Origin: Bacteroidetes bacterium UBA5697
GTDB taxonomy: Bacteria; Bacteroidota; Bacteroidia; B-17B0; Aurantibacillaceae
Length of the DNA: 64,000 bases
Direction of reading: 5' to 3'
Assembly (NCBI GenBank): GCA_002420145.1
Contig: DIHL01000021.1
Location: forward strand, 13,112 to 77,111
The notes under the pieces are model-generated. The model was not told the DNA's origin and searched no databases. It saw nothing but the letters and a program-made list of their open reading frames with translations. Shown one piece after another: positions 50,949-59,277 of the stretch (position 1 is the first letter of the stretch; each line of letters starts with the position of its first letter). Made by a program: the position numbers and the translations under genes.

Positions 50949-51932
50949 TTATTTGTTTAATACTACTTTTTTAACTGATTTTTCTTTACCATTTGTAATA
51001 GTTACAAAGTAAACACCATTATTATTATTAGACAAATCAACTGAAATAGATTCAGAAGGTGTGAAGTTTTTGTTAGTTACAATTTGTCCGATAGCATTAG
51101 TAATTGTTACATTAACATCATTATTTGATTTTAATGTAATATTAAAAATACCATTAGAAGGATTTGGACTGATAGTAGCAAAATTAATTGCTAAATCTTT
51201 AACACCAGTAATAATTTCAGCGGTAACAATTGGAAAAATAGCTAAATCTGTAGAAGTGAATCCCCAACCAGCTGGAGAAGCAGTTGTAAATGATTGCCAA
51301 GAGTTATCTCCTAATTGTTCATTAGATCCATTTACTGTGTTCGCAGAACATCCATCATGAGTTTGAGCAACAATAACAGTATCTCCAGTTGCAGCATTAG
51401 TTGTAGAAAAATCTAAGGCAACGTGAAAAACAGTTGAAGTTAAATTAACTGCAGATGCAAATGCAAATGTTGTGTAAGTTGCAGTATTAACTGAAGATAA
51501 AAGAACTGGAATACTTGTACCTAATAAAGTACCAGGTAAACCAGATGCATCAGCATAAACCTTAGCTGTTACACTTCCTGTTCCAGTAACATAAGGAATA
51601 ATCATTGCTACGCCACTACAAGTTGCAGGTAAACCTAAAGTATAAGTAGCTAAATCATATTTTTGAGATTTAGCTTTATCTCCATAAGCATTTGTTCCAG
51701 CAACATATCCATCAGCGCCAGCACCGTAAGTAGTTACTGTACATCCTGAAGTTGCTCCAAAAGAAGCTGGTTGTAAAGCTGTAGTTGTAGGGGTAACAGC
51801 ACTATTAAGAACTGAAGGATTAAGTGCAGAAATTGATACATTTCTTGTTTCAGCTGTTTTATTAGCTTTTCCTTGTGCATTAGCAGTAATAGTTAACGCT
51901 AATAAACCAATAATTGAGTAAATTTTTTTCAT
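50949..51932 (-). CDS. Secreted protein with T9SS type A C-terminal sorting domain
   Basis: The signal peptide is MKKIYSIIGLLALTITANAQ. The C-terminus (ISPNPSNGIFNI...NGVYFVTITNGKEKSVKKVVLNK) is typical of Por_Secre_tail. The start is set at the internal ATG 51932. Confidence 0.78.
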   Translation of the reverse strand: MKKIYSIIGLLALTITANAQGKANKTAETRNVSISALNPSVLNSAVTPTTTALQPASFGATSGCTVTTYGAGADGYVAGTNAYGDKAKSQKYDLATYTLGLPATCSGVAMIIPYVTGTGSVTAKVYADASGLPGTLLGTSIPVLLSSVNTATYTTFAFASAVNLTSTVFHVALDFSTTNAATGDTVIVAQTHDGCSANTVNGSNEQLGDNSWQSFTTASPAGWGFTSTDLAIFPIVTAEIITGVKDLAINFATISPNPSNGIFNITLKSNNDVNVTITNAIGQIVTNKNFTPSESISVDLSNNNNGVYFVTITNGKEKSVKKVVLNK

Positions 51933-52111
51933 ATAGTTTTTTATAATTTTGAGTTTCCACAAATCTAATGTTTTTATCTTAAAAAACTTTAATTACAGAA
52001 TTTATACATTTTCTATAGTGCAAAATTCTTTAGCTTAATACTTTTAGTTATTTATTGTGGAAAAAATAGTTTTTTTACATCTATATACTAAAATATTTAG
52101 GTATATTTAGG

Positions 52112-52119
52112 TATATTTG
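52112..52119 (+). promoter_or_regulatory. -7 box TAtaTTTG for the giant gene (last unit of a 2.8-copy 10-mer tandem repeat)
   Basis: Exact TAnnTTTG match. It overlaps the TTG start of the ORF track at 52117, which argues for ATG 52165 as the real start. Confidence 0.45.
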
Positions 52120-52164: not shown

Positions 52165-55100
52165 ATGCGTTTAAGCTATTTATTCTTGTTTTTAGCAATT
52201 TTCTATTGCTCAGATTCTTATTCCCAAATAAAAAACGAAGACGATTTAAAAAAACAAGCCGAAAAACATTTTGAAGATGAAGATTATAATTTAGCCTATA
52301 AACTCTACGCACAATTAGTATCCTTATACCCAAAAGATCCTGAATATAATTACAGATTAGGTGTTTGTATGCTTTATACAGAACCTGACAAAAAGAAGCC
52401 TTACTCCTATTTACAAATTGCCACTAAAAATCCTGCAACTGCTCCAAAAGACGCCTTATTTTATCTAGCCAAAACCTATCACATCAATTATCGATTTGAT
52501 GAAGCAATAAAATTATATACAGATTATAAAAAAATAGGTAGCTCTTCTTCTATCAAAAAATTAGAAGTTGATAGAGAAATACAAGCTTGTAAAAATGGTA
52601 AACGATTATTATCGAATTTATCAGATTTAGTAATCATCAGCAAAAAACAATTAAACGAAGCAGATTACTATAGAGGCTACGACGTGAAAGAAATTGGTGG
52701 AAAATTATTAGTAAAACCCGACGATTATAAAACAGGTTATGATAAAAAGAAAAAAGACAAATCCGTTGTATATCTTCCAAAAAGTGGCGAAAGGCTTTAT
52801 TACTCAAGTTACGGAGAAGGAGGAAGCAATGGAAGAGATATTTATTTTGTAAACAGATTACCTAACGGCAGTTGGAGTAAAGCACAAATATTACCTTCAT
52901 CTATTAACACAGAATTTGACGAAGACTACCCTTTTTTACATCCTAACGGTAAGACACTTTACTTTAGCTCTAAAGGTCATAACAGCATGGGTGGTTACGA
53001 TGTATTTAAAACTACATATGATGACGGCACTCAATCTTGGAGTAAACCAGAAAATTTAGAATTTCCTATCAACTCACCCGACGATGATATTTTATTTGTA
53101 ACCGACTCTCTTGAAAAAACAGCTTTCTTTAGTACTGGTAGATACAGCCCCTATGGAAAACTAGATGTTCTAAAAGTAAACACCGAACGTCGACCAATGA
53201 ACTCTGCAGTGATTAAAGGAACTGTAGTTAAAGAAGATGCAAATCAGAGTTTGAAATCAAAAATTACAGTTAAGAATATGGCCAATGGAGAAATTGTTGG
53301 CACATTTCAAGCAGCAGATAATGGCGATTACAATATGGAATTACCTAACGGTGGAAAATTCTTATTCACTGTTGAAACGCCTGGAATTAATACACAATCA
53401 GATGCCGTTAATATTCCAGTGGCTTATACATTAAAACCGTATAAACAAATGATTGCTTATGAAAATAAAATTCTAAAAATCACGAATTATTTTGATGGAA
53501 AAGTAGATGATGAAAACTACGCCATGATGATAGATTTTATTGAGAAAAAAGCTAAACTAGAGGTTAATGAAATGGAACCTTACAACAATAGCTTAATAAA
53601 GGATCCTAAAAATCAAAATGCGAATAACAACGAAAATAATTTAAATTCTGTTTCCACTAATAATCCAACAGCTCAAGGCAATGATGGAAACACTGTAAAA
53701 AACAACACTAACAAAAATGTTACAAACGAGCAATTATTAGAGATAGCTAAATCAGATGCCAAAGAAGCTAGCGACGAGGCTGCAAAATTAAAACAAGAAG
53801 CTCAAGATGCTTTTGGATTAGCTACTCAAAAAACAGCAGAGTCGGTTGAGAAACAAAAGGCTGCTGACGAAGCTTTAGCAAATGCAAATTCTATTTCGGA
53901 TGTTGTGAAAAAGAATGAAGAATTAACAAAAGCTAATCAATTAAAAGAAGAAGCTAAAATAGCCACTAGTGTTGCTAATACCGCTACCAACATGGCTAAA
54001 AAACTAGAAGTGGATGCTAGTATACAACAAAAAGAAGCTGATTTAACCAACCAATACATTAGTCAGTTAGAAGCTGTGACTAAAAACAAAAACAATAAAG
54101 AAGCTTTAACTAAGCTTGAAGAAATTCAAAAGGAATTAGATAATATATCGAAACAAAAAAATCAATCAGATGAGTTATTTACTTCTTTAAAAGCAGAATC
54201 AGAATTAAAACAACAAGAACTAGTCAATACACAAAAGAAAAACAGTTCTATTTCTAACGAAATCAATGCCATTAAAAATGAAACTGAAACTTTAGAAAAA
54301 GATTTAGCAAACGAAACCGATAAATCAATTAAAGAAAATATATCGGCTCAAATTAGAGAACTAAACAACGAAATTGAAATTAAGAATAAAGAGATTACTG
54401 CCAATAACCAAAAAATTAATACTCTACAAAATGAAGTAGACGGTGTTAACCAAGAATTATTAGTAGCTGCTAAAATTTTAAATGAATCTACGGAAGGCAT
54501 TAACGTTAAAAACAACAATATTGTTTATGACGAGAATAACAACAATAACGAAGTTTCCACTAATAACAACAATGCTAGCACTTTATCATACGAAGGCATT
54601 ACTAATAAATACAGTGATAAAGTAAACTCTCCTGTTGACAAAACAAATAAAGAAAGCATCACTCAACAAAATGAAGTTTACAAAAACTACAACAAAGAAA
54701 TTAGCGACTTAATTGCCCTAAATAAAAATGAAGTATCAAAAACAAAAGATGCGACTCAGAAAAAGAAATTAAACGAGGAAATAAAACAATTAGAAAAACA
54801 GAAAACAGAAAACGACAAAGCTATTGCTTTAAATAATACAACAATCAAACAATTAGACGCTTCCATAGCGAACAACAACAACGAATCTAATACAACTATT
54901 GTTTCTAATGAAACATCGAATAACAACAATGCTAATGCAACTAATACAGCTACTACAAATGCTGTTTCAAATAACAATGCTAATGAAGTAACAAATAATA
55001 ATGTTGCTGTAACTAATGCAACCGAAAACAACAATACATCAATTACCAATAATGTTATTTCAAATAATACTGAAACAAACAAAAACCAAGACCCAACTGT

Positions 55101-58100
55101 TACCAATAACATTGCAAGCGACAACACACCAATAAAAACATTAAATACTGCCGCTAGCAATAATCCGGAAGTGTTATTAAACGAACTTTCTAATGTAAAA
55201 GAAAGCTTAACAGCTAATACTAATGCCGCTAAGGATATCGTATCTTATAATAACTACAAAGAAAGTACCTCAGTAACTTTAAAGGATGCTGTCACTCAAA
55301 AATTTGAAATTGCCAAACAAAACGAAATCAACTTAAATAATCTCATTACTAGTACTGAAAGTTCTCTTCAAAATTCTTCTAATCAAAACCCTGAAATTTT
55401 ACTAAACGAAGCAGATGCTTTAAACAACAAGGCTTATGAACAAAGAAAAGAATCTGCTACTAAAACTGGAGAAGAAAAAGAAAATTTAATGAAGCAAGCA
55501 ACTGAAAACGAAAAAATTTCGGTTGAGAAAAAGCTACAAGCTTCGACATTAGCGCAAACTCAAAACAAAGCAAAATTTGATAACAATATTTTAAACCTTA
55601 CTGAATTACAAAAATTAACTGGACAAAAAACAAGTAATGAGATTTCTCAAGCTAACATGTTAATTGATGAAGCAGCTATTAACTTTAAGCAAGCTCAAAA
55701 AATTCGCCAGGAAGCTGATGCGTATCCAAATGGTGCAGCTAAACTAGGTGGCTTAAACAATGCTGAAGAAAAAGAAAATGAGGCTTTAGCAAAACAACAA
55801 AAAGCTTTAGAGATTTTAAGCAAAACAAATCCAACATATAAAGTACAACCTTTAAATACAGGGGGAGTTAATTCCACTGAATCTATTGCTAATATAAACG
55901 AACAAATTAAAAAAACATCTTTATCACAGGTTGACGCCTATTTAGCATTAAGTAAAGTCAATCAAAACGAATTAAATGCTCAAAGCAGTAAATTAGCAAA
56001 AGACCCTGCTTTTCAAAATCCTGCAAATAAACCAGCACAAGAATTAAAAACAAATGCTGATAATTTAAATAATGAAGCAAAAGTTTTAATCGGACAATCT
56101 GTTACTGCTCAAAATCCAACCGAAAAAGCAAACTTATTATTAAAAGCTAATGAAAAAGAAATAGCGGCCTTAAAAGCTTTAAATGAAGCTACCGAATTAA
56201 CTAAATCAAACACTGCTGCTATTGCTAACAACAATGTGACAAATAACAATAATGAAGTAGCTATTTCAAATAATAATAACGCCACTGAAACAAATACCGT
56301 TGCTGCCAACAATAATAATAGTAGTCGAACTAATGGAGGAAACAATGAAACCAATAATGCCTCCAACGTTACAAATAATAATGAAAACGTAACGAATAAT
56401 GCTGCTAATAATGAAAATGTAACAAACAACAACGTATCAAACAATAACGAAAATGCAAGTAATAATAATGTTACTGCTAATAACGAAACTATAACTAATA
56501 CAAACTCAAATAATACTTCTGGAAATGGAGTAAAAGATGAAGTCGCTAAAATTAAAACAGATTTAAATAATCCTAACGAATCAAAAATATTAACCTTCAA
56601 TCCATATTTAGATCAAGAAGCTTCTGATTTAAAAAACAAAGCAACCGAAAAAATTAATGCCGCTATTAGTGAAGACAAAAATATTATCGCTTCTTTAGAT
56701 AATGTGAATCAAGCTGCTAGTTCGGGCGGTTCATTAAACCAAGGAAACATTACCGCCCTTTTAAATGAAGCCGACAATTTAAATACTGAAGCATTTAATT
56801 TAAGAAAAAATGCAGCAACCAAAACAGGAACTGAAAAAGAAACAGATATTAATACTGCCAAAAACTTAGAAGCTAATGCCGTAGCAAAAAAATTAGACGC
56901 AGCTAACAAACAACAACAATTAAACACAGCTACTTATGAAGCTAATAAACAAAGTTTAGAAGAATTAGCTACCATGGCAAAAGGTAAAAACTTTGCTGAT
57001 TTAAATTCGGCAGATATGTTAACTAACGAAGCCGCTTTATTTTTAAAACAAGCTAGTAACTTAAGAACTGAAGCAAATGCTTATCCAAGTGATGCCGCAA
57101 AATTAGGTGGTTATAGTAATGCCGAAGAAAAAGAAAATCAAGCCATTGCAAAACAACAAGCCCTTTTAGATTTATACAAAAAACATTTCCCTAACTACGT
57201 TCCTAAAAAAGCAAACATTGCATCAGAGAATACAGATGCTGTAGCTAAGTTAAATGAAGCTAAAAATAACTTAAATACTAATAACCAAACACACGTTGAT
57301 GGTTTATCATTATTAATTCAAGCAAACGATAAAGAGTACAGTTCTCGTTTAAATTCAGTTCCTGCAAATTTAACTCCTGAACAAACTAATTTAAAAGATA
57401 AAGCACAAACTTCTTATAGTAAAAAAGATGCGTCTGTTGCAAAAGCAAATCAAACAAATGATTTAAGTGTCAAGAAAAATTTATTAATTGAAGCCAACAA
57501 ACATGGAGTGGAAGCTTTAAGTAACTTAAATAAAATCACTAATCCAGACGCTGCTGCAATTACTTTCTCAAACGAAAACGAATCAAATACCACTATTGCA
57601 AATAACGCCAACAATAACAACGCTACAAACAATAATGTAGCTACTAATAACGCAAACAATAACAACGTAACTAATAACAATGCTGCCAATAATAATGCAG
57701 CAAACAACAACGCCACTAACAATAATGCGACAAATAATAATGTAACTAACAATAACGCAAACAATAATACGTCCACTAACAATACAAATGCAACTAACGC
57801 TACAAATACAAACGCAACTAACGCTACAAATACAAACGCAACTAATACTACTAAAATAAAAGTAGAAGGTTTAGAAGTTAAAAATAACAATGCATACACT
57901 GCAGCTAAGCCAATTCCTATTGACGAAAAAATGCCTGATGGCCTTGTATTTAAAGTGCAAATTGGAGCCTTTAAAACACCTTTACCAAATAATACATTTA
58001 AAGGTTTAAGTCCAGTAGTTGGGCAAACAACTCCTAATGGCTACATTCGTTATATGGCTGGTAATTTCGAACAATATAATAGTGCTAATGCTGTTAAAAA

Positions 58101-59112
58101 CGATTTACGCAATTTAGGCTATAATGATGCCTTTGTAGTAGCCTACTATAACGGTGTTCGTATTAATTTAAACGAGGCTACTGAAAAAGCTAAAGCAGCA
58201 GGACAAACGGTTGAACCTACTGCAAATACTAGCGCTGGTTTAACAAGCAATGCTAATGTTCCTAAAAACACATTTACACCAGCTACAACTAATAACGTTG
58301 CTACTAACAATACAATAGATACACAACCAGCTGAAATTACCAACGAGTTAGAAAAAATGAATGGCTTGTTATACACTGTTCAAATTGGTGTTTACTCAAA
58401 ACAAGTTACACGTGGGCAATTATACAATTTAAAACCTATTTACTCTGAAAGATTACCTAACGGATTATACAGATACACAGCAGGTATTTATAACCAATCT
58501 AGTAAACTATTGGAAGATAAACGTAAAGTAGTTGATCTTGGAGTAAAAGATGCCTTTGTATCTGCTTATTACAATGCTAAACGTATTCCATTTGCTGAGG
58601 GACAAAAACTACAAACAGAAAACAATAATTTGAAAATGGAAACTGAAAATCCAATTATTTTTAATGGTGCTTCAGTTCCTACTCCAACTGCTACTAATAG
58701 CAATTCAGTCATTGTTATTGATATGAATAGCATTCCTGGTCCAGGTGCTACTAATACACCATCTGTTACTCCATTTACAAATGGCGTTACGAGTGGCCCA
58801 ACTCCTACTGCTGATAATGGTGTAAAAACAGATGATGCTGGTATTTCATATAAAGTGCAAATTGGAGCTTACAAAAACCAAGTGCCAAATGAGGTAGCTT
58901 CTAAATTCTTAAATATTAAAACATGGCCTGTGCAAAATGTGGTTATAAACGGACTATATATATACACCATTGGTAATTTTACTTCGGCAGCCTTTGCTAA
59001 AAAATTAAAAGATGAAGCTGTTGCTGTAGGTATAAACGATGCTTACATCACCGTTTATAAAGACGGTAAAAAATTATATGGCGCTGAGGCTACTCAATAT
59101 CTTACTAGATAA
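52165..59112 (+). CDS. Giant (2315 aa) envelope protein: signal peptide, TPR, PD40 beta-propeller repeats, CarboxypepD_reg-like domain, ~1400-aa Asn/Lys/Glu-rich coiled-coil/low-complexity spacer, three C-terminal SPOR domains
   Basis: Signal peptide MRLSYLFLFLAIFYCSDSYSQ. PD40-like DEDYPFLHPNGKTLYFSS. AVIKGTVV...DYNMELPNGGKFLFTV. Three (F/Y)KVQIGA(F/Y)-type SPOR units lie at about 57940-58175, 58366-58600 and 58841-59080. Confidence 0.8.
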   Translation: MRLSYLFLFLAIFYCSDSYSQIKNEDDLKKQAEKHFEDEDYNLAYKLYAQLVSLYPKDPEYNYRLGVCMLYTEPDKKKPYSYLQIATKNPATAPKDALFYLAKTYHINYRFDEAIKLYTDYKKIGSSSSIKKLEVDREIQACKNGKRLLSNLSDLVIISKKQLNEADYYRGYDVKEIGGKLLVKPDDYKTGYDKKKKDKSVVYLPKSGERLYYSSYGEGGSNGRDIYFVNRLPNGSWSKAQILPSSINTEFDEDYPFLHPNGKTLYFSSKGHNSMGGYDVFKTTYDDGTQSWSKPENLEFPINSPDDDILFVTDSLEKTAFFSTGRYSPYGKLDVLKVNTERRPMNSAVIKGTVVKEDANQSLKSKITVKNMANGEIVGTFQAADNGDYNMELPNGGKFLFTVETPGINTQSDAVNIPVAYTLKPYKQMIAYENKILKITNYFDGKVDDENYAMMIDFIEKKAKLEVNEMEPYNNSLIKDPKNQNANNNENNLNSVSTNNPTAQGNDGNTVKNNTNKNVTNEQLLEIAKSDAKEASDEAAKLKQEAQDAFGLATQKTAESVEKQKAADEALANANSISDVVKKNEELTKANQLKEEAKIATSVANTATNMAKKLEVDASIQQKEADLTNQYISQLEAVTKNKNNKEALTKLEEIQKELDNISKQKNQSDELFTSLKAESELKQQELVNTQKKNSSISNEINAIKNETETLEKDLANETDKSIKENISAQIRELNNEIEIKNKEITANNQKINTLQNEVDGVNQELLVAAKILNESTEGINVKNNNIVYDENNNNNEVSTNNNNASTLSYEGITNKYSDKVNSPVDKTNKESITQQNEVYKNYNKEISDLIALNKNEVSKTKDATQKKKLNEEIKQLEKQKTENDKAIALNNTTIKQLDASIANNNNESNTTIVSNETSNNNNANATNTATTNAVSNNNANEVTNNNVAVTNATENNNTSITNNVISNNTETNKNQDPTVTNNIASDNTPIKTLNTAASNNPEVLLNELSNVKESLTANTNAAKDIVSYNNYKESTSVTLKDAVTQKFEIAKQNEINLNNLITSTESSLQNSSNQNPEILLNEADALNNKAYEQRKESATKTGEEKENLMKQATENEKISVEKKLQASTLAQTQNKAKFDNNILNLTELQKLTGQKTSNEISQANMLIDEAAINFKQAQKIRQEADAYPNGAAKLGGLNNAEEKENEALAKQQKALEILSKTNPTYKVQPLNTGGVNSTESIANINEQIKKTSLSQVDAYLALSKVNQNELNAQSSKLAKDPAFQNPANKPAQELKTNADNLNNEAKVLIGQSVTAQNPTEKANLLLKANEKEIAALKALNEATELTKSNTAAIANNNVTNNNNEVAISNNNNATETNTVAANNNNSSRTNGGNNETNNASNVTNNNENVTNNAANNENVTNNNVSNNNENASNNNVTANNETITNTNSNNTSGNGVKDEVAKIKTDLNNPNESKILTFNPYLDQEASDLKNKATEKINAAISEDKNIIASLDNVNQAASSGGSLNQGNITALLNEADNLNTEAFNLRKNAATKTGTEKETDINTAKNLEANAVAKKLDAANKQQQLNTATYEANKQSLEELATMAKGKNFADLNSADMLTNEAALFLKQASNLRTEANAYPSDAAKLGGYSNAEEKENQAIAKQQALLDLYKKHFPNYVPKKANIASENTDAVAKLNEAKNNLNTNNQTHVDGLSLLIQANDKEYSSRLNSVPANLTPEQTNLKDKAQTSYSKKDASVAKANQTNDLSVKKNLLIEANKHGVEALSNLNKITNPDAAAITFSNENESNTTIANNANNNNATNNNVATNNANNNNVTNNNAANNNAANNNATNNNATNNNVTNNNANNNTSTNNTNATNATNTNATNATNTNATNTTKIKVEGLEVKNNNAYTAAKPIPIDEKMPDGLVFKVQIGAFKTPLPNNTFKGLSPVVGQTTPNGYIRYMAGNFEQYNSANAVKNDLRNLGYNDAFVVAYYNGVRINLNEATEKAKAAGQTVEPTANTSAGLTSNANVPKNTFTPATTNNVATNNTIDTQPAEITNELEKMNGLLYTVQIGVYSKQVTRGQLYNLKPIYSERLPNGLYRYTAGIYNQSSKLLEDKRKVVDLGVKDAFVSAYYNAKRIPFAEGQKLQTENNNLKMETENPIIFNGASVPTPTATNSNSVIVIDMNSIPGPGATNTPSVTPFTNGVTSGPTPTADNGVKTDDAGISYKVQIGAYKNQVPNEVASKFLNIKTWPVQNVVINGLYIYTIGNFTSAAFAKKLKDEAVAVGINDAYITVYKDGKKLYGAEATQYLTR

Positions 59113-59173: not shown

Positions 59174-59277
59174 TTGCTCCATCGGAGCAAAACATTGAAA
59201 AATATACGTTTGGCTACTCTGTAGCCATATTTTATTTATATATGTTTTATTAATAAGATTTTGCTCCTCTGGAGCAA
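59174..59277 (+). repeat. Family D mini-hairpins (TTGCTCC-nnn-GGAGCAA x2, plus TGGCTAC-tct-GTAGCCA)
   Basis: The hairpins are at 59174-59190, 59211-59227 and 59261-59277. All have 7-bp stems and 3-nt loops. Confidence 0.7.

Follow-up and report, generated by a model that had tools for sequence, protein, structure and literature searches.

A 2315-residue predicted periplasmic protein of Bacteroidia that joins a TPR-PD40-CRD head to three SPOR domains through an undescribed helical module

The stretch of DNA analysed here (the window) comprises 64,000 nucleotides of contig DIHL01000021.1 (positions 13,112 to 77,111, forward strand) from the genome of Bacteroidetes bacterium UBA5697 (assembly GCA_002420145.1; GTDB family Aurantibacillaceae) and carries a gene for a 2315-residue protein, referred to below as the giant. 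The gene is a single intact open reading frame (ORF) at 52165-59112 on the plus strand, running from an ATG at 52165 to a stop codon at 59110-59112. By its sequence, the giant is built from known domain types in an undescribed arrangement, together with a helical module that is itself undescribed. An N-terminal head with TPR, PD40 and CarboxypepD_reg/transthyretin-like (CRD) domains is connected by a long middle region to three SPOR domains at the C-terminus. A literature search found no paper on the combination of a TPR-PD40-CRD head, a helical middle and three SPOR domains, in keeping with the original prediction, made from the DNA letters alone, which named no characterised protein with this architecture as known. 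We interpret the giant, with moderate confidence, as a soluble periplasmic scaffold whose tail would be anchored to peptidoglycan and whose head would bind a protein partner.

The three C-terminal units are clearly SPOR domains. Unit 1 spans residues 1926-2012 (57940-58200), unit 2 residues 2067-2150 (58363-58614) and unit 3 residues 2226-2315 (58840-59109), the last forming the C-terminal end of the protein (all features of the giant lie on the plus strand). The Pfam SPOR model (PF05036, cut-off 21 bits) scores 16.9 bits on the whole giant; applied to the isolated units it gives 21.9 bits, no match and 21.8 bits, respectively. Unit 2 was assigned by alignment to units 1 and 3, with which it shares 30-35% identity, and from its AlphaFold2 (AF2) model. 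Among homologous units, 43 of 69 match Pfam SPOR individually (E < 0.01), and the top PDB match of a profile of the 69 units is the SPOR domain of CwlC (1x60, E 1.3e-6). AF2 predicts all three units with a pLDDT (predicted local distance difference test) of ~90. Unit 3 has the canonical β-α-β-β-α-β order, and Foldseek aligns the giant SPOR fold with 1x60 at a probability of 1.0 and a TMt of 0.71. The three SPOR domains proposed originally are thus recovered by profile searches and by fold. The Gln of the VQIG motif, equivalent to FtsN Q251, is invariant in 69/69 units. The Arg of the RY motif, equivalent to FtsN R285, is retained by 90% or more of units 1 and 2 and is an Ile in unit 3. In FtsN, Q251 and R285 contact the N-acetylmuramic acid (MurNAc) of denuded glycan (PMC6895207). 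Ahead of unit 1 lies a conserved pre-SPOR segment, KVEGLEVK..NAY.A.KPIPIDEK.PDG (residues 1898-1925, 57856-57939), whose invariant and near-invariant columns in 37 homologues include PIP. A search of the giant for an OmpA domain gave no match.

At the opposite end, a signal peptide is followed by a TPR domain, a PD40 β region and a CRD, in the order found in the PorE family and in agreement with the original prediction. The TPR domain covers residues 25-149 (52237-52611). Several Pfam TPR models match the first 480 residues below cut-off, a profile of 38 homologous heads matches consensus TPR proteins (E 2e-6), and the predicted helices have a pLDDT of ~90 and a Foldseek TMt of ~0.8 to designed TPRs. 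The PD40/TolB-like β region that follows is short (residues 153-343, 52621-53193) and holds about three recognisable PD40 repeats, identified with Pfam, NCBIfam and AF2. Pfam PD40 reaches 36 bits on the first 480 residues (cut-off 20.9) and the modelled region has a pLDDT of 50-87; Foldseek on the head model gave no decision on whether it closes into a propeller. The CRD β-sandwich (residues 347-442, 53203-53490) is modelled with a pLDDT of 90-94 and matches the transthyretin-like structures 4v4c_B and 2h0e_B in Foldseek; its Pfam CarboxypepD_reg score, 22.4 bits, is under the cut-off of 32.3. The whole-head model (pLDDT 78.6) adds a helix at residues 449-463. Submitted to Foldseek as three domains together, the head returned separate domain-level matches of low TM (template modelling) score, to TPRs, to β-propeller-containing sensors and to transthyretin-like sandwiches.

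The best NCBIfam match of the head is CHU_0125_OmpA (NF053607), with 97.7 bits over residues 204-420 against a cut-off of 620. T9SS_PorE (NF052230) gives 94.6 bits on the head alone against a cut-off of 600, residues 207-407 corresponding to model positions 289-480; the whole giant gives no match. The head is a distant relative of PorE/CHU_0125-type proteins. By analogy with these proteins it would act as a protein-docking module, an assignment that forms part of the scaffold interpretation as a whole and that we likewise find somewhat probable.

The giant is predicted to be exported by the Sec pathway and cleaved by signal peptidase I (SPI), leaving it without a lipid anchor. The signal peptide (residues 1-21, 52165-52227, preceding the TPR domain that starts at 52237) has a predicted SPI site SYS/Q, with Gln at +1. 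Gln at this position is typical of SPI substrates in Bacteroidota (the 'Q-rule'). In an alignment of 49 homologues, [AS]-Q after the hydrophobic stretch is conserved; Cys15 is not conserved and is absent from many of them. The reading of the signal as a lipoprotein signal, FYC/S, was ruled out because Cys15 is not conserved, and the likeness to PorE does not extend to the lipoprotein anchoring of PorE. A type IX secretion system (T9SS) sorting domain was sought as well: Pfam Por_Secre_tail has no match in the whole protein, and NCBIfam has none in the last 419 residues at E up to 1. With an SPI-type signal, no lipoprotein signal and no T9SS sorting domain, the giant should remain in the periplasm.

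The middle, ~1400 residues long, was originally described as an Asn-rich coiled-coil spacer. Part of this description stands, as heptad-like sequence (residues 520-770) and Asn/Thr-rich linkers are present. A single long coiled coil is ruled out by an internal duplication and by the AF2 model: the middle consists of a heptad segment of ~250 residues, two copies of an undescribed module, here called module A, and disordered linkers of ~100 residues. AF2 models cover the head, module A copy 2, linker 3 and the SPOR tail; the first helical segment (H1) and linkers 1 and 2 were judged from their sequence. H1 (residues 520-900, 53722-54864) was recognised by its heptad score and is conserved collinearly among homologues. 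The heptad score is 0.72 for residues 520-770 and 0.64 for residues 520-900, compared to 0.49 ± 0.03 in shuffles of residues 520-900, and the giant has no Pro from residue 502 to 822.

Module A copy 1 (residues 1001-1345, 55165-56199) and copy 2 (residues 1453-1797, 56521-57555) are internal duplicates: residues 1006-1343 align with 1458-1792 over ~340 residues at 36% identity (E 6e-24). The AF2 model of copy 2 is a bundle of eight helices of 25-50 residues each, with a pLDDT of ~90. Searches of the middle region against Pfam, NCBIfam and the PDB gave no match, so that module A is left without a relative in either Pfam or the PDB. A likeness of module A to ClyA and pore-forming toxins was considered and rejected as generic, the best Foldseek match having E 3.8e-3, a TM score of 0.16 and a root-mean-square deviation (rmsd) of ~36 Å.

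The linkers vary freely. Linker 1 (residues 901-1000, 54865-55164) is Asn/Thr-rich sequence of low complexity (36% Asn) that cannot be aligned between homologues. The nearest public relative is locus L001 (PNMI01000018.1, labelled 'MAG Sphingobacteriaceae bacterium FW.025'); almost every indel that separates it from the giant keeps the frame and falls within the low-complexity linkers, linker 1 included. Linker 2 (residues 1346-1452, 56200-56520), Asn/Thr-rich and defined by composition, ranges from 0 to 158 residues among homologues, and its composition tracks genome G+C. Linker 3 (residues 1798-1897, 57556-57855) is Asn/Thr/Ala-rich and has a pLDDT of ~30 over the modelled residues 1797-1896. 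It contains imperfect in-frame tandem repeats at 57601-57845, with periods of 15, 18, 24, 30 and 45 nt, and in-frame indels relative to L001 and to a second relative (L002); such repeats and indels would fit length variation driven by slippage. Taken together, the two linkers flanking module A copy 2 have a median of ~100 residues and a range of 0 to 171, and they are Asn/Thr-rich only in low-G+C genomes. Because their length and composition vary freely, they probably act as spacers and not through a specific sequence. Low-complexity Asn/Thr sequence makes up about a quarter of the giant; Asn-richness as a functional feature was ruled out, the linkers being rich in Ala, Lys, Val and Ser in genomes of 43-48% G+C.

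The giant is conserved as a unit and is under strong purifying selection. Its head recurs in over 1,677 protein clusters whose members are about as long as the giant, the best 120 of them with 74-100% identity over 94-100% of the head; the matching clusters are labelled 'hypothetical', 'PD40 domain-containing' or 'WD40-like beta propeller containing' at their source. In species-representative genomes, 50 loci have an intact ORF of 1,870-2,970 residues, and exactly three SPOR units are terminal in 50/50 of these homologues. Module A was detected in 44 homologues, in two copies in 43 of them and in three copies in one. This last protein (L026:7875-16790, plus strand, 2,971 residues) suggests that the number of modules can change. 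Ratios of nonsynonymous to synonymous substitution (dN/dS) against four relatives lie at 0.008-0.05 in the head, at 0.02-0.09 in the SPOR region, at 0.02-0.18 in H1 and at 0.05-0.22 in the A modules. Four loci (L006, L011, L032 and L055) are interrupted by one or two frameshifts or by an in-frame stop. The breaks are frameshifts in L032 and L055 and an in-frame stop in L011; the contigs of these three loci bear names of the form 'tig...', in the style of a long-read assembler, so that assembly error is a likely cause. The concern that the gene might be split or pseudogenised in relatives is not borne out by the intact homologues and the low dN/dS.

Module A is present in 172/185 genomes of the GTDB order to which the window belongs (the order holds one family) and in 116/123 of the high-quality ones. 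An even sample of the class has it in 53/401 genomes and 24/202 genera. Among the stretches taken from other families, 11/12 carry a giant ORF with a full head and three SPOR units. All named records returned by scans for carriers are metagenome-assembled genomes (MAGs); one of them, a Vicingaceae MAG, is a complete chromosome. Searched against 1.8 billion proteins, the module-A profile matches 291 representative clusters, which comprise giants and small proteins of 200-390 residues with one or two module cores. The small proteins share the motif R.EA.A....AK.G..SNAEEKE..A..KQ, are spread over many genomes of Bacteroidia and have no family in Pfam. The one in this genome (C51:38169-39308, plus strand) has a hydrophobic N-terminus, and its neighbours are by eye unrelated housekeeping genes. 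Another Bacteroidia family contains a protein of 2,867 residues (L104:5779-14382, plus strand; G345:C64) in which the parts stand in another order: OmpA lies close to the N-terminus and is followed by five A-like helical modules, PD40 repeats and a CRD. A modules have thus been combined with this type of scaffold and a wall-binding domain in two or more arrangements.

About 20 paralogues of the TPR-PD40-CRD scaffold are encoded in the same genome. At least ten of them end in OmpA, in line with the original view of how such heads usually terminate, and about four have no recognised domain after the CRD. The PD40 sequence of the short paralogues is about twice that of the giant. A single SPOR unit of the giant's subtype forms the C-terminal end of three short paralogues (C35:1736-3724, C15:47339-49408 and C52:5230-7368). 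The exchange of SPOR for OmpA singled out in the original prediction is therefore real in the giant and not unique to it, and the wall-binding end of the TPR-PD40-CRD scaffold appears to be exchangeable. The giant's SPOR subtype occurs in two further proteins of the genome. A 726-residue protein (C58:24510-26690, minus strand) has an unrecognised N-terminal half, Asp-rich repeats and three terminal SPOR units of this type, and an Amidase_3 enzyme (C15:322-2019, plus strand) has one, in the classical CwlC-like arrangement.

The genome also holds 20 PorP/SprF genes, and 6/20 short paralogues lie 23-162 nt from such a gene on the same strand (C52:44478-47354, C47:46870-49960, C9:92372-95568, C91:9152-12165, C43:16189-18704 and C9:2805-5730). 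In these adjacent pairs a PorP-PorE-like cassette seems to recur. The gene most like PorE in this genome is C22:2022-3968 (474 bits). No gene of this 99.9%-complete genome reaches the equivalog cut-off for TolB (TIGR02800) or for Pal (TIGR02802). All its OmpA_C domains lie within larger multidomain proteins, and the giant is not among its weak TolB matches. The closest paralogue of the giant head (35% identity) is a 981-residue protein with tandem copies of the head module (C4:321591-324536, minus strand); it ends abruptly inside a PD40 repeat, where a stop is followed downstream by an ORF of 146 residues. An FtsN-like HU-N/SPOR protein (C4:326836-327915) is encoded 2.3 kb from this paralogue.

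The giant gene looks monocistronic, because a promoter box match lies upstream and terminator-like hairpins follow the stop. In Bacteroidota the promoter -7 consensus is TAnnTTTG. The sequence TATATTTG at 52112-52119 (plus strand), 46 nt 5′ of the ATG, fits this box as a consensus match only; a sigma-70 promoter scan upstream of the gene found nothing better than in shuffled sequence. A TTG 16 codons 5′ of the ATG is a possible alternative start, and the hydrophobic signal begins at the ATG. Two terminator-like hairpins lie past the stop (59211-59227 and 59261-59277, plus strand), the second readable on both strands, and the terminator search 3′ of the gene returned 3 sites where shuffles gave 0.2. 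On the other side, the product of a divergent gene (50949-51962, minus strand) is a T9SS cargo protein; it combines a type A sorting domain (Pfam Por_Secre_tail, 52 bits) with an N-terminal domain for which Pfam and the PDB gave no match. A member of this cargo family lies immediately upstream of the giant in 42/67 loci, usually in divergent orientation, including distant loci that have no other synteny, and this recurrence hints at a link to the T9SS. A functional operon with the downstream ClpS and M48 genes, or with the upstream cytochrome c, MqnE and GT2 genes, was ruled out, as their synteny is found only among close relatives.

These features suggest how the giant could work as a wall-anchored scaffold. 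After export by Sec and cleavage by SPI, the protein would stay in the periplasm. There its three SPOR domains would bind glycan strands of the wall, probably strands denuded by amidases, by analogy with every SPOR domain that has been tested. Carried on linkers of ~50-70 residues, the three domains could bind in a multivalent manner and with high avidity. The head, as a diverged version of the docking module of PorE/CHU_0125-type outer-membrane-to-wall tethers, would bind a partner, most likely one associated with the outer membrane and possibly related to the T9SS. The coiled-coil-like segment, the two rigid bundles and the linkers between them would allow the head to range tens of nanometres from its anchor, a reach much greater than the distance from outer membrane to wall.

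Several observations speak against this interpretation. The possible span goes far beyond the width of the periplasm and is more than a simple strut between outer membrane and wall needs. The 95-98 bits scored by the head fall well short of the 600-620 set as cut-offs for PorE and CHU_0125. No PorP/SprF gene adjoins the giant, and its PD40 region has about half the extent seen in the paralogues next to PorP, so that the partner may be other than PorP. In the AF2 model, units 1 and 2 have a loop where SPOR helix 1 is expected, and unit 3 has lost the conserved Arg, so that glycan binding could differ among the three units. Some complete genomes of the order are without module A (for example G148, G087 and G009), and the giant is therefore not indispensable.

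The scaffold interpretation has to be weighed first against a general tether that maintains envelope integrity all round the cell, as the Pal-like CHU_0125 does, with SPOR serving as the alternative wall anchor of this lineage and no connection to division. We consider this fairly improbable. Because the three short paralogues and the 726-residue protein carry the same SPOR type as the giant, in the paralogues at the place of OmpA_C, these units may be general wall anchors that are not specific to the septum. The lack of TolB and Pal equivalogs in the genome points the same way, as does the best NCBIfam match of the head, which is to the CHU_0125 'outer membrane integrity' family (PMC5891637). 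However, in published work (PMC6895207 among it) every SPOR domain put to the test has favoured denuded glycans, a material enriched at septa; in the giant's units the glycan-face Gln is invariant and the Arg is kept in units 1 and 2. A flexible protein of some 2,300 residues would also be an odd choice for a short structural staple.

A bolder version of the scaffold idea places the giant at the division site, as an envelope coupler of Bacteroidia that have no canonical TolB/Pal. The SPOR tail would sit on septal glycan processed by amidases and the CpoB/TolB-like head on an outer-membrane partner, and the middle would be an entropic spring that keeps the outer membrane with the constricting wall. 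On this view module A would represent a new kind of periplasmic domain, a rod or a spring, that also occurs alone in small secreted proteins. We regard this combination of claims as rather unlikely.

Less likely again is that the giant forms a periplasmic polymer or cytoskeleton-like element, its coiled coil and bundles self-assembling along the wall and affecting cell shape or stiffness. CrvA of Vibrio, a periplasmic coiled-coil protein, is the model for such an element. The Pro-free, heptad-like segment of ~250 residues would suit it, as would an extended length far above what the periplasm measures across; a filament could be fastened to the sacculus by the three wall-binding domains, and the small secreted proteins with A-module cores, present in many of the same genomes, could co-assemble. 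However, three disordered linkers of ~100 residues speak against a stiff filament, and the best conserved part is the head, the presumed docking end, and not the helices.

A role outside the producing cell, with the giant secreted or displayed on the surface (for instance as an adhesin or a pore-forming-toxin-like factor) and acting on the walls of other cells, is very improbable. The weak Foldseek matches of module A to ClyA-family toxins and the usual T9SS cargo neighbour could be read in this way. The ClyA matches, however, with a TM score of ~0.16, are typical of any long-helix bundle, the giant has no sorting domain matched by Pfam in the whole protein or by NCBIfam in its last 419 residues and no lipoprotein signal, and its head comes from a family of periplasmic scaffolds. 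Finally, a decaying or chance ORF swollen by low-complexity repeats can practically be dismissed in spite of the Asn/Thr-rich quarter of the protein and the few interrupted loci, since a random frame with the base composition of the window would stay open for 2315 codons with a chance of ~1e-80, all folded parts have a dN/dS well under 1, the 50 intact homologues are of species level, and three of the four interruptions are probably assembly errors.

Bacteroidota tie their outer membrane, T9SS and gliding machinery to the wall by means of PorE/Pal-like proteins, of which only the short members ending in OmpA have been studied. In the giant family a putative docking head of this kind is recombined with SPOR, the module that other bacteria use to find the wall of the division site, and is stretched by ~1,400 residues that include a helical domain present in no family library. 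Nearly universal within a single uncultured order, the family is also present in further families of Bacteroidia that are common in freshwater, groundwater and wastewater. Should septa be the target of the SPOR trio, the giant would be a candidate for coordinating the outer membrane with division in bacteria lacking TolB and Pal. If it is not septal, SPOR domains would here be used as general wall anchors. In either case the range of roles known for SPOR domains and for the PorE scaffold would grow.

Of the characterised systems, PorE of Porphyromonas gingivalis (PG1058/PGN_1296) has the same order of TPR, PD40/WD40 and CRD, followed by a peptidoglycan-binding end. PorE pairs with PorP (PMC12773672), and paralogues of the giant in this genome adjoin PorP/SprF genes. 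In P. gingivalis the WD40 domain of PorE is implicated in PorP binding, and the wall-binding end and its residues are essential; gliding Bacteroidota have many PorE homologues that are not lipoproteins and many copies of PorP (PMC12773672). Unlike PorE, the giant is not a lipoprotein and has no conserved lipobox Cys, its PD40 region reaches about half the length, a middle of ~1,400 residues made up of helices and linkers is inserted, no PorP gene is adjacent, and three SPOR units stand at the C-terminus in place of OmpA. The 'Pal-like' CHU_0125 proteins resemble the giant in having a TPR and PD40 scaffold with a wall-binding end (PMC5891637), and deletion of CHU_0125 impairs the integrity of the outer membrane (PMC5891637). 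The giant differs from CHU_0125 in length (656 residues in the latter), in its helical middle and in ending in SPOR, where CHU_0125 ends in OmpA_C.

FtsN, DamX, DedD and RlpA of E. coli and Pseudomonas and CwlC of Bacillus subtilis each have a single SPOR domain. The giant has three in tandem, units 1 and 2 being modelled without helix 1, and it places the trio on a PorE-like head, with no transmembrane anchor and no amidase or lytic transglycosylase domain. It shares with these proteins the SPOR fold, seen in CwlC as 1x60, and the Gln that contacts MurNAc (PMC6895207). The three kinds of module that Proteobacteria distribute over CpoB (TPR), TolB (PD40 propeller) and Pal (OmpA_C) are united in one chain in the giant, which is only faintly similar to the TolB and YbgF models and has SPOR in place of OmpA_C. 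Tol-Pal of E. coli is active where the cell divides.

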